Part shown: piece after piece, positions 21,515 through 33,857 of the stretch
Layout: each line of letters begins with the position of its first letter
Numbering within the stretch: position 1 is the first letter of the stretch
Assembly (NCBI GenBank): GCA_937927675.1
Contig: CALBSG010000005.1
Coordinates: forward strand, 21,727 to 85,726
DNA: 64,000 bases
DNA from: an uncultured Rhodobacteraceae bacterium
GTDB lineage: Bacteria > Pseudomonadota > Alphaproteobacteria > Rhodobacterales > Rhodobacteraceae
Direction of reading: 5' to 3'
Translations under genes and position numbers: made by a program
The notes under the pieces: model-generated
Databases searched by the model: none
Told to the model about the DNA's origin: nothing
What the model saw: the letters and a program-made list of their open reading frames with translations, nothing else

Positions 21515-21539
21515 GGAACCCAAACTCCCGACCCACGTT
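21515..21539 (+). promoter_or_regulatory. EcfG-type promoter, perfect GGAAC-N16-CGTT
   Basis: GGAAC at 21515-21519 and CGTT at 21536-21539. It lies ~48 nt upstream of the ATG at 21587. Confidence 0.6.
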
Positions 21540-21854: not shown

Positions 21855-21879
21855 GGAACCAAATGGGGACGCCTGCGTT
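21855..21879 (+). promoter_or_regulatory. EcfG-type promoter, perfect GGAAC-N16-CGTT
   Basis: GGAAC at 21855-21859 and CGTT at 21876-21879, 33 nt upstream of the ATG at 21912. Confidence 0.6.
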
Positions 21880-21911: not shown

Positions 21912-22169
21912 ATGAAATCCATCGTTCTGCTTCTTGGCCTTATTGCGGCCCTTCCAGCCTGCATGCCGACCACGGATCCCGTCGTCGGCGGCGCCCTGAC
22001 CGGAGCAGTCCTCGGCGCAGCCGTCTCAGATGACGGCGACCGCGTTGAGGGTGCGCTAATTGGCGCGGGTGTGGGCGGCATTGCGGGCTCGCTCATCGGT
22101 CAATCCAGCCGGCCCGGCTATTGTGTCTATCGCGACATCAACGGCAACCGCTACACCGCGCGCTGCTAA
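21912..22169 (+). CDS. Glycine-zipper outer-membrane lipoprotein (17-kDa antigen / YMGG-like)
   Basis: ATG at 21912 after AGGAG (21901-21905). Lipobox 'LPAC'. Glycine zipper 'GGALTGAVLGAAV...GALIGAGVGGIAGSLIG'. Confidence 0.8.
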   Translation: MKSIVLLLGLIAALPACMPTTDPVVGGALTGAVLGAAVSDDGDRVEGALIGAGVGGIAGSLIGQSSRPGYCVYRDINGNRYTARC

Positions 22170-22611: not shown

Positions 22612-22770
22612 TGCCGACCCGACCAGACCACACAGCGAGGGTCCCGCTGTTGCTAAAAGGGAACAGCACCCTGCGTCGGCGGCTCCCTGCCAAACCCTTT
22701 TGACGCTCGCGGAGCGCCCGTCATGGCGCCGCGTTTTTTCCACGATCCCATAAAGAAACCGGAGGCCCGT

Positions 22771-23340
22771 ATGGCGGCCGAGACTTTTTCGACTGAACTT
22801 GTCGACGTCATCCCCAGCCTGCGCGCCTATGCCCGCGCACTGACCCGCAATGCGGCTGATTGTGACGATCTGGTCCAAGAAACCTTGGCCAAGGCGCTGA
22901 AGAACCAGAGCCGATTTGAACACGGCACGCGGCTGAAATCTTGGCTGTTCACCATCATGCGCAACACCTTTTACACCGCCGCAAAGAAGTCTGCGCGGGA
23001 ACGGCCGGGGCTGGAGGACTGCGTGTCCGCCAGCGTGCTGGTGGAACCCGTGCATGATGCTGTCATCACCCACAAACGCCTGTTGGCGGCCATCGAACGC
23101 CTGCCGCAACAGTATCGCGAGATGCTGATCCTCGTCGTGATGCTGGGAGAAACCTATGAAGACGCCGCCCGCATATGCGGTTGTGCGGTCGGCACGGTCA
23201 AAAGCCGGGTCAACCGGGCGCGCAGGATGGTGATGCAAGAGATGGAGGAGGGGTCGCCAGCGCAGCCGCGAAACAAAGTGATACTTGCGAATCAACAAAT
23301 TGGCGCCGTGCCTCGGCAGGTCCAAATGCGACGGCCCTGA
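22771..23340 (+). CDS. ECF sigma factor, EcfG-like paralog (second copy)
   Basis: ATG at 22771 after GGAGG. 'LRAYARALTRNAADCDDLVQETLAKAL', 'WLFTIMRNTFY' and 'GTVKSRVNRARR' align by eye with the sigma at 31492. No adjacent NepR-like gene. Confidence 0.85.
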   Translation: MAAETFSTELVDVIPSLRAYARALTRNAADCDDLVQETLAKALKNQSRFEHGTRLKSWLFTIMRNTFYTAAKKSARERPGLEDCVSASVLVEPVHDAVITHKRLLAAIERLPQQYREMLILVVMLGETYEDAARICGCAVGTVKSRVNRARRMVMQEMEEGSPAQPRNKVILANQQIGAVPRQVQMRRP

Positions 23341-27687: not shown

Positions 27688-27733
27688 GCCTGCAGCACTC
27701 TGCACACCTCCGCGGCGGCGTGCCCGGCTGAAG

Positions 27734-27759
27734 GGAACCCGACCGTGCATCCGGGCGTT
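27734..27759 (+). promoter_or_regulatory. EcfG-type promoter, perfect GGAAC-N17-CGTT
   Basis: GGAAC at 27734-27738 and CGTT at 27756-27759, 40 nt upstream of the ATG at 27799. Confidence 0.6.
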
Positions 27760-27798
27760 TCCTGATGGCTGACCATAGCACAACAGCAGGAGTGCAGC

Positions 27799-28278
27799 AT
27801 GACCAACACACCATTGAAAACCAAAATCGCCGAAACGGCAGAGTTGGCGGCCGGGAAGGCGCGTGAGGGTCTGGGCGCGGCGGCCGACAGGACAAAAGAT
27901 GCCGCAAAAACCATCAAGCAAGAGGCCTCTGCGCGGGTCACCAACACTGCAGAGGCGCTGCGCGAAGCAACCTCGGCGCGCGTCGACGACGCCCGCGAGA
28001 CCTTGGTGACCACCGGCGAACGTCTGGCGCGCAGTTTGCAAGACAGCGCCGAAGATCTGGATGGTCTGCAATCGCGGGTGCTATCGGGTTTGGCAGATGG
28101 CGTCACAGGCGCAACGGATCGCCTGCGACGCCACAGCCCCGGCGATCTCTTGTCGCGGACCCGCCGCCTTGCGCGCGACAATCCTGGTCTCTTTGCGGCA
28201 GGCGCGGCTTTGGCCGGATTTGCCTTGGCCCGGTTCCTGCGATCATCAGCTGAAGGCAAGGGTGGACCCTCGCCATGA
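27799..28278 (+). CDS. Tail-anchored helical stress protein (ElaB/YqjD/DUF883-like architecture)
   Basis: 159 aa. Ala/Glu/Arg-rich helical repeats with a C-terminal TM 'GLFAAGAALAGFALARFL'. First gene of a 3-gene unit. Confidence 0.55.
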   Translation: MTNTPLKTKIAETAELAAGKAREGLGAAADRTKDAAKTIKQEASARVTNTAEALREATSARVDDARETLVTTGERLARSLQDSAEDLDGLQSRVLSGLADGVTGATDRLRRHSPGDLLSRTRRLARDNPGLFAAGAALAGFALARFLRSSAEGKGGPSP

Positions 28279-28691
28279 CAACGGCCGACCACCATGATCG
28301 CCCCGACACCCTCACCGAGATTCTGGGCGAGGTGATGGCCGGGATAATGCGCTTGATCCGAGGAGAAGTTGCTTTGGCACAGGCCGAGGCGGCGGCAAGT
28401 GCCCATAAGGCGGCCTCTGCGCTGGTGCTGTTGGGCGTTGCGGCGATCTTTATCATGGCCGGGATCACCTGCCTTGCCGCTGGGGCGGTGTTGGGGCTGG
28501 TCACCGCCGGGCTGGCCCCGGTCTGGGCGACCTTGCTGGTCGGCGCGCTGCTTGCGCTTTTGGGTTGCGGCTATGGCCAGCATGCCCGCCGCTTGCTTTT
28601 GGATGCGACACGGGGCGCCCGCCGCCCGGCACGCAACCTTCAGCAAGATCTGGAAACCTTGCAAACCAGGGGGAAATCCGATGGCCTATGA
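28275..28691 (+). CDS. Holin-X / YqjE-like two-TM membrane protein
   Basis: 138 aa. 'RLIRGEVALAQAE' amphipathic N-terminus followed by two TM helices. Start overlaps the upstream stop. Confidence 0.55.
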   Translation: MTTADHHDRPDTLTEILGEVMAGIMRLIRGEVALAQAEAAASAHKAASALVLLGVAAIFIMAGITCLAAGAVLGLVTAGLAPVWATLLVGALLALLGCGYGQHARRLLLDATRGARRPARNLQQDLETLQTRGKSDGL

Positions 28692-29562
28692 CACGGACGA
28701 CATTGAACGCGAATTGCAAGCAGAGCGCGCGCGCCTTGGCGATAACCTTGGGAAGCTGAGGGATCGCTTGACCGCCAACGCGCTGCTGGAGGAGCTGAGC
28801 TGTACCTTGCGTGCGCACCTTGGCCCTCTGGCGCGGGGCGCCGACCAAGCGATCCGCGACAATCCCTTTGCGGCCGCGTTGACGGCTGCGGGACTGGCCT
28901 GGCTGGTCTTTGGCCGCACGCCCCGCCCCATCGTGCGAAGCGGCGAGATTTTGGCGGGGACAAAATACGAAGCCCTATCGCGCTGGGAAGACGAGGGTGG
29001 CCCGGTTGCGCCCTTGAAAGACCCCGATCTGAATTGGATCAGCGAAACCGACAGTCTGCGCGCCAAGGCAAGCGCGGCGCTTCGCCGTCTCGATCGCAAT
29101 GTTCGGGGCAAATCGACCACGGCCGCAGATGCACAGGCCCAGCGGGACCGCATCCTGAAAGAGCTTGCCCGCGACGCGAATACCGCATTTCGGCAGGGGC
29201 TGGAAACCTTGCCGCCCGAGGCCCAGACCCGCATCGCAACCGCCCGCGAGACGGCTTATCTTGCAGGGCAAAGCTTGGGGCGCAGGGCGGTTGCCACCGT
29301 TGAAGAAAGCCCCCTTTTGACGGGCTGTCTGGCACTGGGTCTGGGGGCCGCGCTGGCATCTGTCTTGCCGCAAAGTCAGATCGAGAACCGGGTTTTGGGG
29401 GCAGAGCGGGACCGATTGATGAAACAGGCCGATGATCTGCTGCGCAGCGAAAAGGCCCGTGCGGCCGACGTTCTCAGCGGTCTGGCCAATGCCATGCGCG
29501 AGGATTTTTCCGAAGCAACCACAACTCTGACCAAGGGCAATACCCAAGGTCGCACCGGTTAG
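28681..29562 (+). CDS. DUF3618-like protein
   Basis: The ATG at 28681 overlaps the upstream stop. N-terminal 'DTDDIERELQAERARLGDNLGKLRDRL' is typical of DUF3618 as I recall it. The track ORF start at 28369 is an out-of-context extension. Confidence 0.6.
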   Translation: MAYDTDDIERELQAERARLGDNLGKLRDRLTANALLEELSCTLRAHLGPLARGADQAIRDNPFAAALTAAGLAWLVFGRTPRPIVRSGEILAGTKYEALSRWEDEGGPVAPLKDPDLNWISETDSLRAKASAALRRLDRNVRGKSTTAADAQAQRDRILKELARDANTAFRQGLETLPPEAQTRIATARETAYLAGQSLGRRAVATVEESPLLTGCLALGLGAALASVLPQSQIENRVLGAERDRLMKQADDLLRSEKARAADVLSGLANAMREDFSEATTTLTKGNTQGRTG

Positions 29563-29591
29563 GCGGGTCGCAAAAAAGTTCCTCCAAGGTG

Positions 29592-29616
29592 GGAACCCAT
29601 CTGTGGTCTGAAGGTT
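29592..29616 (+). promoter_or_regulatory. EcfG-type promoter motif GGAAC-N16-GGTT in a non-coding gap
   Basis: GGAAC at 29592-29596 and GGTT at 29613-29616. No credible CDS lies downstream before the terminator at 29689-29732. Confidence 0.4.
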
Positions 29617-29622
29617 TCTCCG

Positions 29623-29732
29623 GCAGACGGTTGCAAGAAAGTCCCTGTCCTGCCGTCTGCAAAGGGTGCTTCCCTTCCCCCTTGCTCTGGCGCCGACAGT
29701 CTACCCTGGGGGTCGATGTCGGCGCCTTTTTT
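29623..29732 (+). ncRNA. Candidate GSR-dependent small RNA (~110 nt)
   Basis: Predicted architecture: 5-prime hairpin GCAGACGG (29623-29630) / CCGTCTGC (29653-29660); single-stranded C/U-rich linker 'CTTCCCTTCCCCCTT' (29670-29684); GC-rich terminator plus T6. The 5-prime end is inferred from promoter motif spacing only. Confidence 0.4.
29689..29732 (+). terminator. Rho-independent terminator
   Basis: GGCGCCGACA (29689-29698) / TGTCGGCGCC (29717-29726) followed by TTTTTT (29727-29732). Confidence 0.85.
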
Positions 29733-29781
29733 ATGCTCGCACACAGACGGCGTGGCGCCGGCCAGCGACGGGCGCCCAGCG

Positions 29782-30270
29782 CTATTCCAGCTTGCTGACA
29801 ATCGCTTGGGCAAAGGCTGCAATCATCGCATCATAGTAGACGCGGGTATCGGCTGGCAGGGTTTCCAGACTGACATCTGATGAGATCATCGGCTTGGCCT
29901 GATTGACGTCCACCAACAATTGATAAAAGCGGTTTTGCGATTTGTCGTCGTCGTTGCGCATGGTCACATCGCCGATGATCCGGGTGTCGGCCAGACCGAT
30001 TGCATCGGTAAAGCCGTTCGACAATTCAACCTCGGCAATGTCGATACTGATGTCGACGCCCTTTGTGGCAATCCTGTCGCCCAGCCGCGATGCAATCGCG
30101 CCCTCCAAGTCTTCATCCAGACGTGCCCAATAGGTGGCGGCGGTCGGGTTGGCGACAGCGGCAAGGTCGGTTGTCACATCAACCGATTTCACAGTCCAAG
30201 GGTCGGCCGCAAAGGCCATCGGAACCACAGCGAGGTTCACCGTGACAGCAAAGATCATGGAACGCAGCAT
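29782..30270 (-). CDS. Secreted hypothetical protein (162 aa)
   Basis: Signal peptide 'AVTVNLAVVPMAFA/ADP', acidic mature part, own perfect EcfG motif upstream. No recognisable domain. Confidence 0.65.
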   Translation of the reverse strand: MLRSMIFAVTVNLAVVPMAFAADPWTVKSVDVTTDLAAVANPTAATYWARLDEDLEGAIASRLGDRIATKGVDISIDIAEVELSNGFTDAIGLADTRIIGDVTMRNDDDKSQNRFYQLLVDVNQAKPMISSDVSLETLPADTRVYYDAMIAAFAQAIVSKLE

Positions 30271-30360: not shown

Positions 30361-31212
30361 TCAGGCGGTCAGCGTCTCGGTGCTGGCAAAGAACATCGCC
30401 TGTGACACGGCAGAATAGATCTGCTCTTCGGTAAAAGGCTTGGTGATAAGAAACGTCGGTTCCGGGCGCGTGCCGGTCAACAGTCGTTCAGGGAACGCGG
30501 TGATAAAGATCACCGGCAGCGCATTGAATTGCGACAGGATGTCATTGACAGCATCAATCCCCGAGGAGCGGTCCGCAAGCTGAATATCGGCGAGGATGAG
30601 ATCGGGGCGATCGCGAAGCGCCAGACTGACGGCTTCGCTGCGGGTGGCGGCAATGCCGGTCACTGCATGGCCCATTTCCTGCACGATGGTCGACAGGTTC
30701 ATCGCAATGATGGCTTCGTCCTCGATGACAAGCACCTTGCCCGCAACCGAGGCCTCCATTTCCTGCAAGGCGACCTGAATCAAATGGGCGACGTCCTTGG
30801 TTCCAATCTGCATGATCGCCGCGATTTCTGGCTGCGCAAACCCCTCGATCACATTCAAGAGCAAGGCTTCGCGTGTGTTCGGGGTCAGCATCGCCATATG
30901 GGCCTGCGCTCTGGCCGACAGCGGGGTGTCGGCATCGCCCACGGGCGCACCGGCACTGGCCCAGACCAGATGAAAAGCATGAAACAACCCGACCTTGGGA
31001 TCATCACCGGCACGCAGCACAGACGGATCTTCCAGAACGGCTTCAAGCGTGGCGGCGGCAAAGGAATCACCGCTGGTCTGACTGCCGGTCAAGGCACGGG
31101 CATAGCGGCGCAGATAGGGAAGATGGCCTGCGACAAGGCTGGCCAGATCAAGCCGCGGGCGCGTCGGCATCCCCTGCGCAGCCGATGACCCGGTTTGCGG
31201 CGCTGACGTCAT
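30361..31212 (-). CDS. phyR: PhyR anti-anti-sigma factor (sigma-like domain + receiver)
   Basis: ATG at 31212 after GGGAGAA. N-terminal ECF-sigma-like region ('LPYLRRYARALTGSQ...', 'REALLLNVIEGF') plus C-terminal receiver ('VLVIEDEAIIA...DLILADIQLAD...ITA'). Divergent from nepR-ecfG. Confidence 0.9.
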   Translation of the reverse strand: MTSAPQTGSSAAQGMPTRPRLDLASLVAGHLPYLRRYARALTGSQTSGDSFAAATLEAVLEDPSVLRAGDDPKVGLFHAFHLVWASAGAPVGDADTPLSARAQAHMAMLTPNTREALLLNVIEGFAQPEIAAIMQIGTKDVAHLIQVALQEMEASVAGKVLVIEDEAIIAMNLSTIVQEMGHAVTGIAATRSEAVSLALRDRPDLILADIQLADRSSGIDAVNDILSQFNALPVIFITAFPERLLTGTRPEPTFLITKPFTEEQIYSAVSQAMFFASTETLTA

Positions 31213-31239
31213 GATTTTCTCCCTTGGCGAACTTTTCTG

Positions 31240-31272
31240 GGAACCAAACACTGGGAAGATGAGTTTGGTTCC
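31240..31272. promoter_or_regulatory. Divergent, interlocked EcfG-type promoters of phyR and nepR-ecfG within the palindrome GGGAACCAAAC-N11-GTTTGGTTCCC
   Basis: Plus: GGAAC 31240-31244, N17, AGTT 31262-31265. Minus: GGAAC (plus-strand GTTCC 31268-31272), N17, TGTT (plus-strand AACA 31247-31250). Confidence 0.6.
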
Positions 31273-31297
31273 CTATAGTTAGAAAGATGCGTGAAAA

Positions 31298-31495
31298 ATG
31301 ATGGACACTGACATGTCTGACAAAGCGCCCAGATCCAGAATCAAGGATCAGATCGACGCGAACCTGAAGCGCATCTATGACGATATCACGAAAGAAGAAG
31401 TGCCGGAACGGTTCCGGCTTTTGCTGGACCAACTGCGCACAAAATCGCTGGAGGAACCTGCCCCGCCGCCCCACAGGACTGGGGATGAGCCATGA
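31298..31495 (+). CDS. nepR: NepR anti-sigma factor
   Basis: 65 aa. Core 'QIDANLKRIYDDITKEEVPERFRLLLDQL' matches the conserved NepR helix pair. Stop overlaps the ecfG start. Confidence 0.85.
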   Translation: MMDTDMSDKAPRSRIKDQIDANLKRIYDDITKEEVPERFRLLLDQLRTKSLEEPAPPPHRTGDEP

Positions 31496-32106
31496 CAAGG
31501 CAGCGGAACGACGCCGTATGTGACCCCGCTGCCGCGGCAGCCGACAAACCGGTGGAAGATTTCCGCGATCATCTGGTTGACCATCTTGGGCCGCTGCGGG
31601 CCTTTGCGCTCAGCCTGACACGCAGCAGGCCGGCCGCCGATGATCTGGTGCAGGATACCATCGTAAAAGCGTGGACCAATGCCGAGAAATTTGCGCCGGG
31701 CAGCAACCTTCAGGCTTGGCTTTTCACCATCCTGCGGAACACTTATTTCTCGACGATCCGCAAGCGCCGCCGCGAAGTGAGCGATCCCGATGGCAGCTAT
31801 GCCCTGCGCCTTTCCGTCAAACCCGATCATGATGGTCGTCTGGCCTACAGTGATTTTGAACGTGCCTTTGCCAAGCTTTCGGACGAACATCGCGAAGTGT
31901 TGATGCTGGTCGGTGCCTCCGGTTTTTCCTGTGAAGAGGCTGCCGAGATGATGGGCGTCGCCGTGGGCACCGTGAAAAGCCGGGCAAGCCGAGCCCGGTC
32001 GCGGCTGGCAAGATTGATGGGGCTGGCAGAGGGCGAAAGCGTGCTGACCGATGCGGATCAAACCACGATGGCGGTGACAGGACGACCCGGGGCGCATGCG
32101 GCATGA
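31492..32106 (+). CDS. ecfG: ECF sigma factor EcfG (general stress response)
   Basis: 204 aa. 'DLVQDTIVKAW', 'WLFTILRNTYFS', 'GTVKSRASRARSRL'. Synteny: phyR / nepR-ecfG-kinase. Confidence 0.9.
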   Translation: MTRQRNDAVCDPAAAAADKPVEDFRDHLVDHLGPLRAFALSLTRSRPAADDLVQDTIVKAWTNAEKFAPGSNLQAWLFTILRNTYFSTIRKRRREVSDPDGSYALRLSVKPDHDGRLAYSDFERAFAKLSDEHREVLMLVGASGFSCEEAAEMMGVAVGTVKSRASRARSRLARLMGLAEGESVLTDADQTTMAVTGRPGAHAA

Positions 32107-33857
32107 CGGCCGGGCGGGGGTCACGCGCGCAACCGGGCCAAGGCCGCCTTGCCTCGCGTTTTGCCGTGATCCTTGCGCTGGCACTGTTGCCGATCGGCGC
32201 GGCATCGGTGATGCAGACCCGCACACTGGAAGACGAATTGCGCAATCGGGCCGAAAGCGGATTGCTTGGTGCAACGCTGCAGGTCGCAGAACACGAAACC
32301 AGCATGATCCGCGCCGCGCAGGGCATGGTGGCCGCTTTGGCCCAAGCGCTGCCTGACGTTGCGGGCGACGCGGCACGCTGCCAGGATTTGATGCGGCGGC
32401 TGAAGGGAGAGATGCCACAAGCCACCCTGATCGCCTTTGTGCCGATGGACGGGCAGATGCGGTGTTCTTCTGTTGGGCGTGCCCATGACTTCACCGACAA
32501 TCCGAATTTCCTGTTTTTACGCGATCAGGAAAAGCCGTCGCTGCGGGTCAGCCGCAAGGGCAGCATCTCGCAGACCTCGATTCTGGCGGTGACCCATCCG
32601 GTGCGCGATGCGGCAGGGAAAAAGACCGGATACGCCGTCATTTCGCTGCCTCATAGCGCGTTGGAGGCCCAGCACGGTCACCTGTCACCAGACCCTCAGG
32701 GGCAACAGGACTTGCTGTTTTTCTGGAGCTTTGATCGCACTGGCGAGGTGATGACCGCCAACATTGATCTTGATGAGGCCGCCCGCCGTCTGCCGGCAGA
32801 ACCGCCGCTTGCCGAATTGGTTGGCCAGTCACGGCAGGTCTTTCAAGCACTGTCTCGGCTGGGAAACCTGCGCACCTATGCTGTCGCCCCGGTCATTAAG
32901 GGCGAACTTTACTTGATGAGCAGTTGGCGCAACGACGATAATCGGTTGATCGCGCAGGTGCGGCTGGCAAATTATCTGACCCCGCTCCTGATGTGGAGTG
33001 TCGGGCTTTTGGTGGCCGCTTGGGCCGCAGAACGGCTGGTCACGCGCCATGTGCGCACGTTGCACCGGGCGATCACCCGCTTTGCCCAAGGTGACAGGCG
33101 GTTGGAGCCGCCCCGGCTGCGCAGCGCCCCTGCTGAATTGCGCGATCTGGGTGCGGCTTACCGGCTGATGACCGAAAACATCACCCGCGGCGAGGCGGAA
33201 CTGGAAGACCTTTTGCACCAAAAGGAAGTCCTGCTGCGCGAGGTGCATCATCGGGTGAAGAACAACCTGCAACTGATCGCCTCGATCATGAATATCCAGA
33301 TTCGCAAAACCACCAGCCAAGAGGCCAAGTCGCTGCTGAAAGATCTCCGCGACAGGGTGATGAGCCTCGCCACCATCCACCGCGGCCTGTATCAGACCTC
33401 GGGGCAAGCCGACGTCACCGTGCGTGAATTATTTTCTGAAATCATTCGGCAAATCAGCGGCTTGCAATCCCCCGCCGGTGCGGCCGTCCATGTCGCGCTG
33501 GATGTTGACGAGCTGCGGCTTGCGCCGGAACAGGCGGTGCCCTTGGCGCTTTTGATGACCGAGGCCGTATCGGCAGCGCTGAATCAGCCCAACCGGCCAG
33601 AGCGGATCAGCGTGGCGCTGCACCAGTTGGACGAAAGCACGGCCAAACTTGAAGTAAACGCCGAGTATCCCGATGGCGTCGGGTCGGCGCAAAATGCGGA
33701 TACCGGGATTGGCCTGCAACTTATGACGGCGTTTGCACAACAACTGGGTGCAACACCAATGATCGAGGACCGACCGACACAAAGGGCAACCTGCGTGACG
33801 TTCCACCTTCAGGCCCTGCGGCGGCAAACGACACCTGACGAGCACCCCATAAAATAA
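32103..33857 (+). CDS. HWE/HisKA_2-type sensor histidine kinase (PhyK-like)
   Basis: 584 aa. TM, periplasmic domain, TM and HAMP-like linker. H-box 'HHRVKNNLQLIASIMNIQ'. ATG overlaps the ecfG stop. Confidence 0.85.
   Translation: MTAGRGSRAQPGQGRLASRFAVILALALLPIGAASVMQTRTLEDELRNRAESGLLGATLQVAEHETSMIRAAQGMVAALAQALPDVAGDAARCQDLMRRLKGEMPQATLIAFVPMDGQMRCSSVGRAHDFTDNPNFLFLRDQEKPSLRVSRKGSISQTSILAVTHPVRDAAGKKTGYAVISLPHSALEAQHGHLSPDPQGQQDLLFFWSFDRTGEVMTANIDLDEAARRLPAEPPLAELVGQSRQVFQALSRLGNLRTYAVAPVIKGELYLMSSWRNDDNRLIAQVRLANYLTPLLMWSVGLLVAAWAAERLVTRHVRTLHRAITRFAQGDRRLEPPRLRSAPAELRDLGAAYRLMTENITRGEAELEDLLHQKEVLLREVHHRVKNNLQLIASIMNIQIRKTTSQEAKSLLKDLRDRVMSLATIHRGLYQTSGQADVTVRELFSEIIRQISGLQSPAGAAVHVALDVDELRLAPEQAVPLALLMTEAVSAALNQPNRPERISVALHQLDESTAKLEVNAEYPDGVGSAQNADTGIGLQLMTAFAQQLGATPMIEDRPTQRATCVTFHLQALRRQTTPDEHPIK

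Follow-up and report, generated by a model that had tools for sequence, protein, structure and literature searches.

The stretch of DNA analyzed here, herein referred to as the window, is a 64,000-nt segment from an uncultured Rhodobacteraceae bacterium (assembly GCA_937927675.1, contig CALBSG010000005.1, positions 21,727 to 85,726). It contains the core regulators of the general stress response (GSR) and, beside them, an intergenic element at 29592-29732 (+) that a preliminary description had proposed to be a small RNA (sRNA) gene dependent on the sigma factor EcfG. In the present analysis, this element is with good probability an independently promoted EcfG-type sRNA gene belonging to the GSR. 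The PhyR-NepR-EcfG system is the main stress switch of Alphaproteobacteria, and one sRNA arm of it, GsrN of Caulobacter, has been functionally characterized. Positions given below are those of the window, with the strand in brackets.

Four GSR genes were assigned by Pfam matches: phyR (30364-31251, -), nepR (31298-31495, +), ecfG (31492-32106, +), and a gene for an HWE/HisKA_2 kinase (32103-33857, +). They are located 0.6-4 kb from the element, with the phyR start at 0.6 kb and ecfG at 1.8 kb. On the other side of the element, an operon encodes a 159-aa protein that is apolipoprotein-like according to Pfam, a holin-X-like protein, and a DUF3618 protein; the real start of the DUF3618 gene is at 28681 and its stop at 29562. 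Convergent to this operon is a gene for a 162-aa protein that matches no Pfam family and has a signal-like segment at its N terminus. This gene adjoins phyR across Paracoccaceae and is the best syntenic marker of the sRNA. A gap of 219 nt, not 220 nt as previously given, separates the DUF3618 stop (29562) from that of the 162-aa gene (29782), and the statement that this gap holds no credible coding sequence stands, since only unconserved mechanical open reading frames (ORFs) were found there, all of them crossing the terminator of the element.

Canonical EcfG-type sites (GGAAC-N16/17-CGTT) precede both the upstream operon (27734) and the 162-aa gene (30342-30318, -). Further GGAAC-N16-CGTT sites were found at 21515-21539 (+), 21855-21879 (+), and 23385-23361 (-), the second of them preceding a glycine-zipper lipoprotein gene (21912-22169). 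Thus, the GSR island spans at least 21.5-34 kb of the window. The features of the locus are collected in Table 1.

Table 1. Features of the GSR locus, of the predicted sRNA gene, and of the related clade C units.
Feature	Position	Strand	Basis or remark
EcfG-type promoter, -35 (GGAACC)	29592..29597	+	sequence; GGAACC also in the canonical sites of the window
Promoter, -10 (GGTT)	29613..29616	+	16 nt 3' of GGAAC (29592-29596); consensus CGTT
Predicted sRNA, ~110 nt	29623..29732	+	start inferred 6-9 nt past -10; end at the T6 tract
Hairpin 1	29623..29660	+	sequence, folding, alignment to the clade B model
C/U-rich loop motif 1, GUCCCUGUCCUG, candidate seed	29641..29652	+	conserved, exposed
Hairpin 2	29665..29688	+	minimum free energy structures of L001 and L004-L007; alignment A1
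C/U-rich motif 2, CUUCCCUUCCCCCUU, candidate seed	29669..29683	+	single strand or 14-nt loop
Rho-independent terminator	29689..29732	+	10-bp G+C stem with inner stem, then T6
Upstream EcfG-type operon (159-aa, holin-X-like, and DUF3618 genes)	27734..29562	+	promoter 27734-27759
Convergent 162-aa gene	29782-30270	-	canonical EcfG-type site at 30342-30318
Core GSR regulators	30361..33857	phyR -; nepR, ecfG, kinase +	Pfam hits
Clade C units	L040:7715-7830, L041:3680-3795, L043:7685-7777, L045:7715-7825	-	adjoin the 162-aa homologue; different arrangement

The layout reported in the preliminary description was recovered from the sequence: GGAAC-N16-GGTT at 29592-29616, an 8-bp hairpin at 29623-29630/29653-29660, a C/U-rich stretch, and a terminator with a 10-bp GC stem at 29689-29726 followed by T6. 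The C/U stretch, CTTCCCTTCCCCCTT, had been placed one position too far, at 29670-29684, and actually occupies 29669-29683. The -35 block, GGGAACCC (29591-29598), is unvarying in the relatives in alignment A1 and has variable flanks. The outer stem of hairpin 1 is a perfect 8-bp inverted repeat formed by GCAGACGG (29623-29630) and CCGTCTGC (29653-29660), within which an inner helix between GCAAG (29633-29637) and CCUGC (29649-29653) is possible. The loop of this hairpin holds GUCCCUGUCCUG, which is mostly unpaired in the structural ensemble and is a mixture of C and U with no pure C tract. The terminator stem consists of GGCGCCGACA (29689-29698) and TGTCGGCGCC (29717-29726), and the T6 tract is at 29727-29732. 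By nhmmer profile search, the element has one copy in the window.

Some additional features adjoin the promoter. An A-tract (AAAA/AAAAAA) at 29573-29578, corresponding to columns 48-52 of A1 and located 13-18 nt 5' of the -35 block, is unvarying in the close clade and recurs in several of the distant homologues. This tract is a possible UP-like element. An inverted repeat of GTTCC (29578-29582) and GGAAC is not conserved in the relatives and was taken as a chance occurrence. An RNA from the minus strand was considered and rejected, as the promoter footprint belongs to the plus strand and no T-run follows the stem on the minus strand.

Close relatives of the element, herein referred to as clade A, were found through homologues of the DUF3618 protein with 83-91% identity. 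They comprise the syntenic contigs L001-L007 and represent five distinct sequences. Both GGGAACCC and GGTT are unvarying in all five, and the 16-nt spacer, the DNA 5' of the -35, and the region of the transcription start all differ (alignment A1). The RNA body is almost unvarying and can be written as AGACGGTTGCA.GA...TCCCTGTCCT.CCGTCTGCAA.GGGTGC.TCCCTTCCC..TTGC.CTGGCGCCGACA. The terminator loop varies with compensation, and the sequences are unalignable right past the T-run. In the window, the RNA body is 81-91% identical to those of the relatives, as compared with 59-85% for the third codon positions of the DUF3618 gene, the 162-aa gene, and phyR and 44-69% for the intergenic flanks; by this comparison, the predicted RNA body is under purifying selection. 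The C-run has from three to five C in these genomes and changes in steps of 1 nt, and such length differences among close relatives exclude a coding constraint. In the minimum free energy structures of L001 and L004-L007, the C/U stretch is a 14-nt loop closed by a 5-bp stem (GGUGC/GCACU). Thus, the conservation check proposed earlier was carried out, and the hairpins together with the C/U stretch were found conserved in related genomes, both in L001-L007 and in the more distant clade B described below.

Folding was evaluated by z-scores against dinucleotide shuffles. Values of -4.1 for the whole RNA, -3.96 for the 5' part with the terminator left off, -3.9 for hairpin 1 taken by itself, and -5.85 for the terminator show folding better than that of the shuffles. 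The C/U motifs are preferentially unpaired in all 15 homologues, with unpaired probabilities of 0.57-1.0 vs. 0.30-0.50 for the whole 5' part. Motif 1 has a mean unpaired probability of 0.63 in the window, as compared with 0.57-1.0 in the homologues, and the unpaired probability of motif 2 is 0.67 in the window vs. 0.74-0.92 among the relatives. As for the promoter, GGAACC-N14-17-NGTT is enriched in the window (10 matches vs. 1.96 expected; reached in none of the 100 shuffles), and eight of the 10 matches are located inside the GSR island, at 21.5-31.3 kb. The -10 sequences of the nepR and phyR promoters of the window are AGTT and TGTT, and a GGAACC-N15-GGTT site (22611-22587, -) precedes a 61-aa ORF beside a second EcfG-like gene. 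Because of these three sites, a first -10 base other than C looks tolerated here.

Units of the same design were sought more widely in Paracoccaceae by scanning the loci around distant DUF3618 homologues together with 32 loci in Paracoccaceae genomes to which the 162-aa protein had led. Such units were identified in L011, L013, L016-L019, L021-L023, L025, and L116. The distant units have a GGAACC-N15/16-CGTT promoter, with TGTT instead in Tabrizicola sp. BL-A-41-H6. Their hairpin-1 loop carries GAUGUCCCUCCCUG and their hairpin-2 loop (A)UCUUUCCCUGUCC, both of the UCCCU type, and the 5' arm of their terminator, GCCGCCGAUG, resembles GGCGCCGACA of the window. C/U motif 1 begins 24-25 nt past the -10 in both clades A and B. 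In a MAFFT alignment of the two clades (A3), the UCCCUG, UCCC, CGCCGA, and CGGCG blocks are unvarying; the unvarying columns of motif 1 are T21, C22, C23, T25, and G26, and the UCCC core of motif 2 is likewise unvarying. The linkage to the ecfG-nepR-phyR locus is kept in L001-L007, L011, L013, L017-L023, and L025.

A covariance model, R1, was built from nine clade B sequences with clade A left out. With filters off, R1 matches 29621-29731 of the window over its full length (model positions 1-119 of 119) with 25.2 bits and E=2.4e-4, and its next-best match in the window has E=0.21. It also matches all clade A orthologues at the orthologous place (E=6e-4 to 1e-2). In the R1 alignment, all six outer pairs of hairpin 1 of the window are standard, and most of their bases differ on both sides from the clade B consensus. 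The covariation check proposed in the preliminary description was done as well. Within clade B, in an alignment not fitted to the structure (A4), 82.8% of the hairpin-1 cells are paired vs. 73.8% in shuffles, and compensatory changes were found in 8 of the 11 pairs, a number reached in none of the 500 shuffles; slid controls gave 33-48%. For the terminator, compensatory changes were found in 6 of the 12 pairs across the homologues. RNAalifold applied to the mixed MAFFT alignment of clades A and B recovered the terminator alone, because the hairpin arms are misaligned in that alignment.

A third group, clade C, was defined by design. Its units consist of a CGTT promoter, a first hairpin with UUGUCCCCUUG in the loop, another hairpin, and a terminator. 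They were found in Defluviimonas denitrificans DSM 18921, in an Albidovulum metagenome-assembled genome (MAG), and in two other MAGs. In a metagenome search with the pattern TCCCTSYYY-N-SCGCCGAYR-N-YRTCGGCGS, the matches listed were mostly random G+C-rich sequences, and L116 was the only true member among them. No match to Rfam 15 was found at the gathering threshold in the whole window or in eight homologous loci. At E<=10, the element region and L019 gave only noise, such as nhaA-II with E=1.9 on the other strand and SorY with 14 bits vs. a threshold of 111. On these sequence comparisons, the element is a putative new Paracoccaceae RNA family of a known kind, namely the C-rich-loop sRNAs driven by the GSR sigma factor.

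In some of the homologous loci, the unit is separated from the DUF3618 operon. In L004 (GCA_032155125.1), an IS110-family insertion element is located directly past the DUF3618 stop, and the promoter and the RNA are intact 1.2 kb further on. In L011, L012, and L015, a terminator made of a hairpin plus T5 is located between the DUF3618 stop and the canonical promoter of the homologous RNA. In L013, L020, and L116, the unit is found away from DUF3618, between a gene for a PRC-domain protein and a crp-like gene. These three types of variants argue that the predicted unit stands alone. The insertion in L004 (L004:3868-5075) encodes a 329-aa DEDD_Tnp_IS110/Transposase_20 protein and lies about 45 nt 5' of the -35 of the sRNA. 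Together with the conservation footprint and the match by the clade-B-only model, the independence of the unit supports the earlier assignment of the element as a candidate EcfG-type sRNA gene.

As was noted in the preliminary description, EcfG-dependent sRNAs exist elsewhere in Alphaproteobacteria. GsrN is a sigma-T-dependent sRNA of approximately 100 nt that pairs through its 5' C-rich loop with G-rich sites in mRNAs (Tien et al., 2018, PMC5869019). The same study predicted EcfG-regulated sRNAs that combine an EcfG site with a C-rich 5' loop beside ecfG/nepR/phyR in Caulobacteraceae, Rhizobiaceae, Brucella, and Bradyrhizobiaceae, and reported BLASTn hits of GsrN limited to Caulobacteraceae; the word "Rhodobacter" is absent from it (PMC5869019). 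Three of the characters used there were found in the candidate element, namely the promoter motif with one deviation from GGAAC-N16-CGTT, the proximity to the locus, and the C-rich 5' loop. Thus, the element and GsrN-like RNAs have in common a sigma-EcfG-type promoter, a length of about 100-110 nt, a position beside ecfG/nepR/phyR, a 5' hairpin with an exposed C-rich loop, and an intrinsic terminator. The likeness is one of design, and the element differs in having mixed C/U loops (UCCCU) rather than C-tracts, two C/U modules, and a GGTT -10. In Sinorhizobium meliloti, 23 sRNAs were predicted to have sigma-E2 motifs upstream (Schlueter et al., 2013, PMC3616915). These sRNA genes are likewise situated behind a GSR sigma motif and are taken as a post-transcriptional arm of the GSR; they were defined by mapping of transcription start sites and by microarrays (PMC3616915). 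A sequence relationship between them and the element is not expected.

Two further types of sRNAs resemble the element in part. Within the same order, the CcsR1-4 or "cuckoo" (alpha-r14-type) sRNAs of Rhodobacter sphaeroides, a type also present in other Alphaproteobacteria, depend on RpoHI/HII and are co-transcribed with a DUF1127 gene. They are stress-induced alphaproteobacterial sRNAs, as the element is predicted to be, and like it have several hairpins with pyrimidine-rich, anti-Shine-Dalgarno-like loops. The cuckoo motif is CCUCCUCCC, as compared with GUCCCUGUCCUG and CUUCCCUUCCCCC in the element and GUCCCUCCCUG in clade B, and CCUCCUCCC was not found in 29623-29732. The promoter and gene partners also differ: the promoter is of the EcfG type, and the upstream genes encode apolipoprotein-like, holin-X-like, and DUF3618 proteins. 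In enterobacteria, MicL and DapZ are sRNAs that have their own promoters and share the terminator of an upstream mRNA. As in the case of the element, an sRNA dependent on an alternative sigma factor would here use the terminator of the upstream mRNA, and both primary and processed forms are possible. The element differs from MicL and DapZ in that its promoter is intergenic, 30 nt past the stop codon and not inside a coding sequence, and in that the unit is detached in other genomes.

By analogy with GsrN, the ~110-nt RNA is most likely a trans-acting sRNA, a functional analogue of GsrN that pairs with G-rich or Shine-Dalgarno (SD)-like mRNA sites. In the proposed mechanism, RNA polymerase with sigma-EcfG would bind GGAACC-N15-GGTT and start transcription near 29623. 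The transcript, predicted from sequence and folding to be about 110 nt long, would end at the intrinsic terminator with a U6 tail, which Hfq probably binds. The loop of the 5' hairpin would display GUCCCUGUCCUG, and the second C/U stretch, CUUCCCUUCCCCC, would be nearly single-stranded in the window and a loop in the relatives. As suggested by GsrN and other C-rich-loop sRNAs, these exposed motifs would pair in trans with G-rich or SD-like mRNA leaders, and this pairing would alter the translation or stability of the mRNAs under stress. Base pairing as the mode of action of the predicted sRNA is plausible, and the "anti-SD" function of the C/U motifs is inferred from the same analogy. A second route may also exist, as the EcfG-driven transcript of the DUF3618 operon would end in the sequence of the element. 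Thus, the RNA may arise both by primary transcription and by processing. A bolder idea, for which we see rather low odds, is that the conserved UCCCU loops mimic the 16S anti-SD sequence and broadly damp or re-programme SD-led initiation under stress, possibly of the own regulon, with the hairpin modules swapped or remodelled between lineages and the seed core and the promoter distance fixed. Feedback on ecfG was also considered and dropped, as the cross-species z-score was about 0 and the method is weak.

If the sRNA assignment is true, the design of a GSR sigma factor plus a C-rich-loop sRNA extends to another order, and an Rfam family is added. Current views are not overturned, because Tien et al. 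already predicted such RNAs to be widespread. In our literature searches, no description of an EcfG-dependent sRNA for Rhodobacterales was found. The locus and its homologues offer a testable candidate with a family alignment and two conserved seed motifs, and hosts that are culturable or have a complete genome are available, namely Tabrizicola sp. BL-A-41-H6 and Defluviimonas denitrificans DSM 18921.

Several results weigh against an independent, base-pairing sRNA. The -10 is GGTT throughout the clade of the window, as compared with the consensus CGTT, and in the window GGAAC-N15-18-GGTT is no rarer than expected by chance (5 matches vs. 1.98 expected; 7 of the 100 shuffles reach 5). The promoter call rests on context and conservation for this reason, and the decisive support for the element is its conservation in relatives, not the motif count. 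The hairpin-1 stem shows no double compensatory change within clade A, where its changes are one C-to-U substitution giving U-G (L001) and the loss of the outermost pair (L005-L007). Hairpin 2 is weak in the window, with a U-U mismatch between GGUGC (29665-29669) and GCUCU (29684-29688). The E-value that relates the window to the distant clade through R1 is modest, and an alignment made with the covariance model (A5) placed the clade A rows inconsistently. Because of this inconsistency and of the misalignment in the mixed MAFFT alignment, covariation was counted on A4. Only a bidirectional terminator was found at the position of the element in L008-L010, where DUF3618 identity is 48%; the family is patchy. 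In the window, the stretch from the DUF3618 stop to the promoter of the element contains no terminator, so read-through from the operon must also end at the sRNA terminator. The proposed target prediction with the C/U motifs as seeds yielded nothing outstanding: when the window was scanned by RNAduplex for pairing to the two seeds, many G-rich matches came up, none of them standing out near a start codon, and neighbouring initiation regions gave modest energies, e.g., -18.7 for loop 1 with ecfG and -20.9 for motif 2 with the 162-aa gene. The sRNA compared with the ecfG start region across species gave z about 0 by a method that is weak.

The alternative already raised in the preliminary description is that the EcfG-driven 159-aa/holin-X/DUF3618 operon merely has its 3' untranslated region (UTR) and its terminator here. 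The GGAAC-N16-GGTT arrangement would then be fortuitous, and a small RNA would arise by processing or not at all. Read-through past the DUF3618 stop (29562) is indeed expected, the deviation of the -10 from CGTT and the lack of enrichment of the bare motif fit this explanation, and in S. meliloti about 60% of the intergenic signals that depend on rpoE2 were attributed to UTRs of neighbouring genes (PMC3616915). This part of the argument still holds for the window. In contrast, the -35 and -10 are unvarying while the spacer and the surrounding bases diverge, which is unexpected of a UTR; a separate terminator precedes the unit with its CGTT promoter in L011, and in L013 and L020 such a unit does not follow DUF3618; and in L004 the IS110 element separates the operon from an intact promoter and RNA. 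Weakened by these other placements, the 3' UTR explanation is considered unlikely.

An EcfG-driven RNA could also be real and act otherwise than by anti-SD-type pairing, either as a sponge or decoy for another RNA or a protein or in cis on the 162-aa gene through transcriptional interference or termination. Such a role would agree with the conserved linkage of the RNA to the 162-aa gene, with their convergent orientation at a distance of 50-80 nt in the window, L017, and L018, and with the lack of a convincing target in the window. It is made improbable by the exposed UCCCU cores, which are the most conserved positions, a hallmark of base-pairing seeds; moreover, because of its strong terminator the RNA would not reach into the 162-aa gene, and in other genomes 1-2 kb and other genes are located between the two. 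Finally, mechanical ORFs of 56-69 aa cross the region (e.g., 29589-29798 or 29666-29836), so that a small protein might be encoded, or the motifs might be a functionless chance combination. The ORFs cross the terminator, and the close relatives show 1-nt indels in the C-run, changes in the length of the terminator loop, and unalignable sequence past the T-run; by the indels and the crossing of the terminator, the small ORF reading was ruled out. Conservation and the match by the clade-B-only covariance model exclude chance, and taken together these two explanations are given hardly any credence. The assignment as an independently promoted sRNA gene is the best supported.

Some other observations concern the neighbouring part of the GSR island. 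At 31240-31272, the promoter of phyR and that of nepR-ecfG, which are on opposite strands, overlap and form a near-palindrome, GGAACCAAAC...GTTTGGTTCC. Inside nepR, at 31402-31418, the terminator scan flagged a perfect palindrome, GCCGGAACGGTTCCGGC, on both strands, probably a mere coincidence of the nepR coding sequence. The second EcfG-like sigma gene is located at 22723-23340 (+) and has PhyR_sigma2, Sigma70_r2, and r4 hits. The 61-aa ORF divergent from it (22611-22326, -) has no Pfam match, and the two may represent a second anti-sigma/sigma pair with a GGTT-type promoter. Between the gene for a large PAS/GAF hybrid kinase and the 159-aa gene, two extra genes are present in all close relatives (L001-L007), encoding proteins of 150 aa (+) and 117-136 aa (-) (L001:862-2058). 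The corresponding region of the window, 27688-27798, is only 111 nt long, and the difference is either a deletion in the window or an insertion in the relatives.

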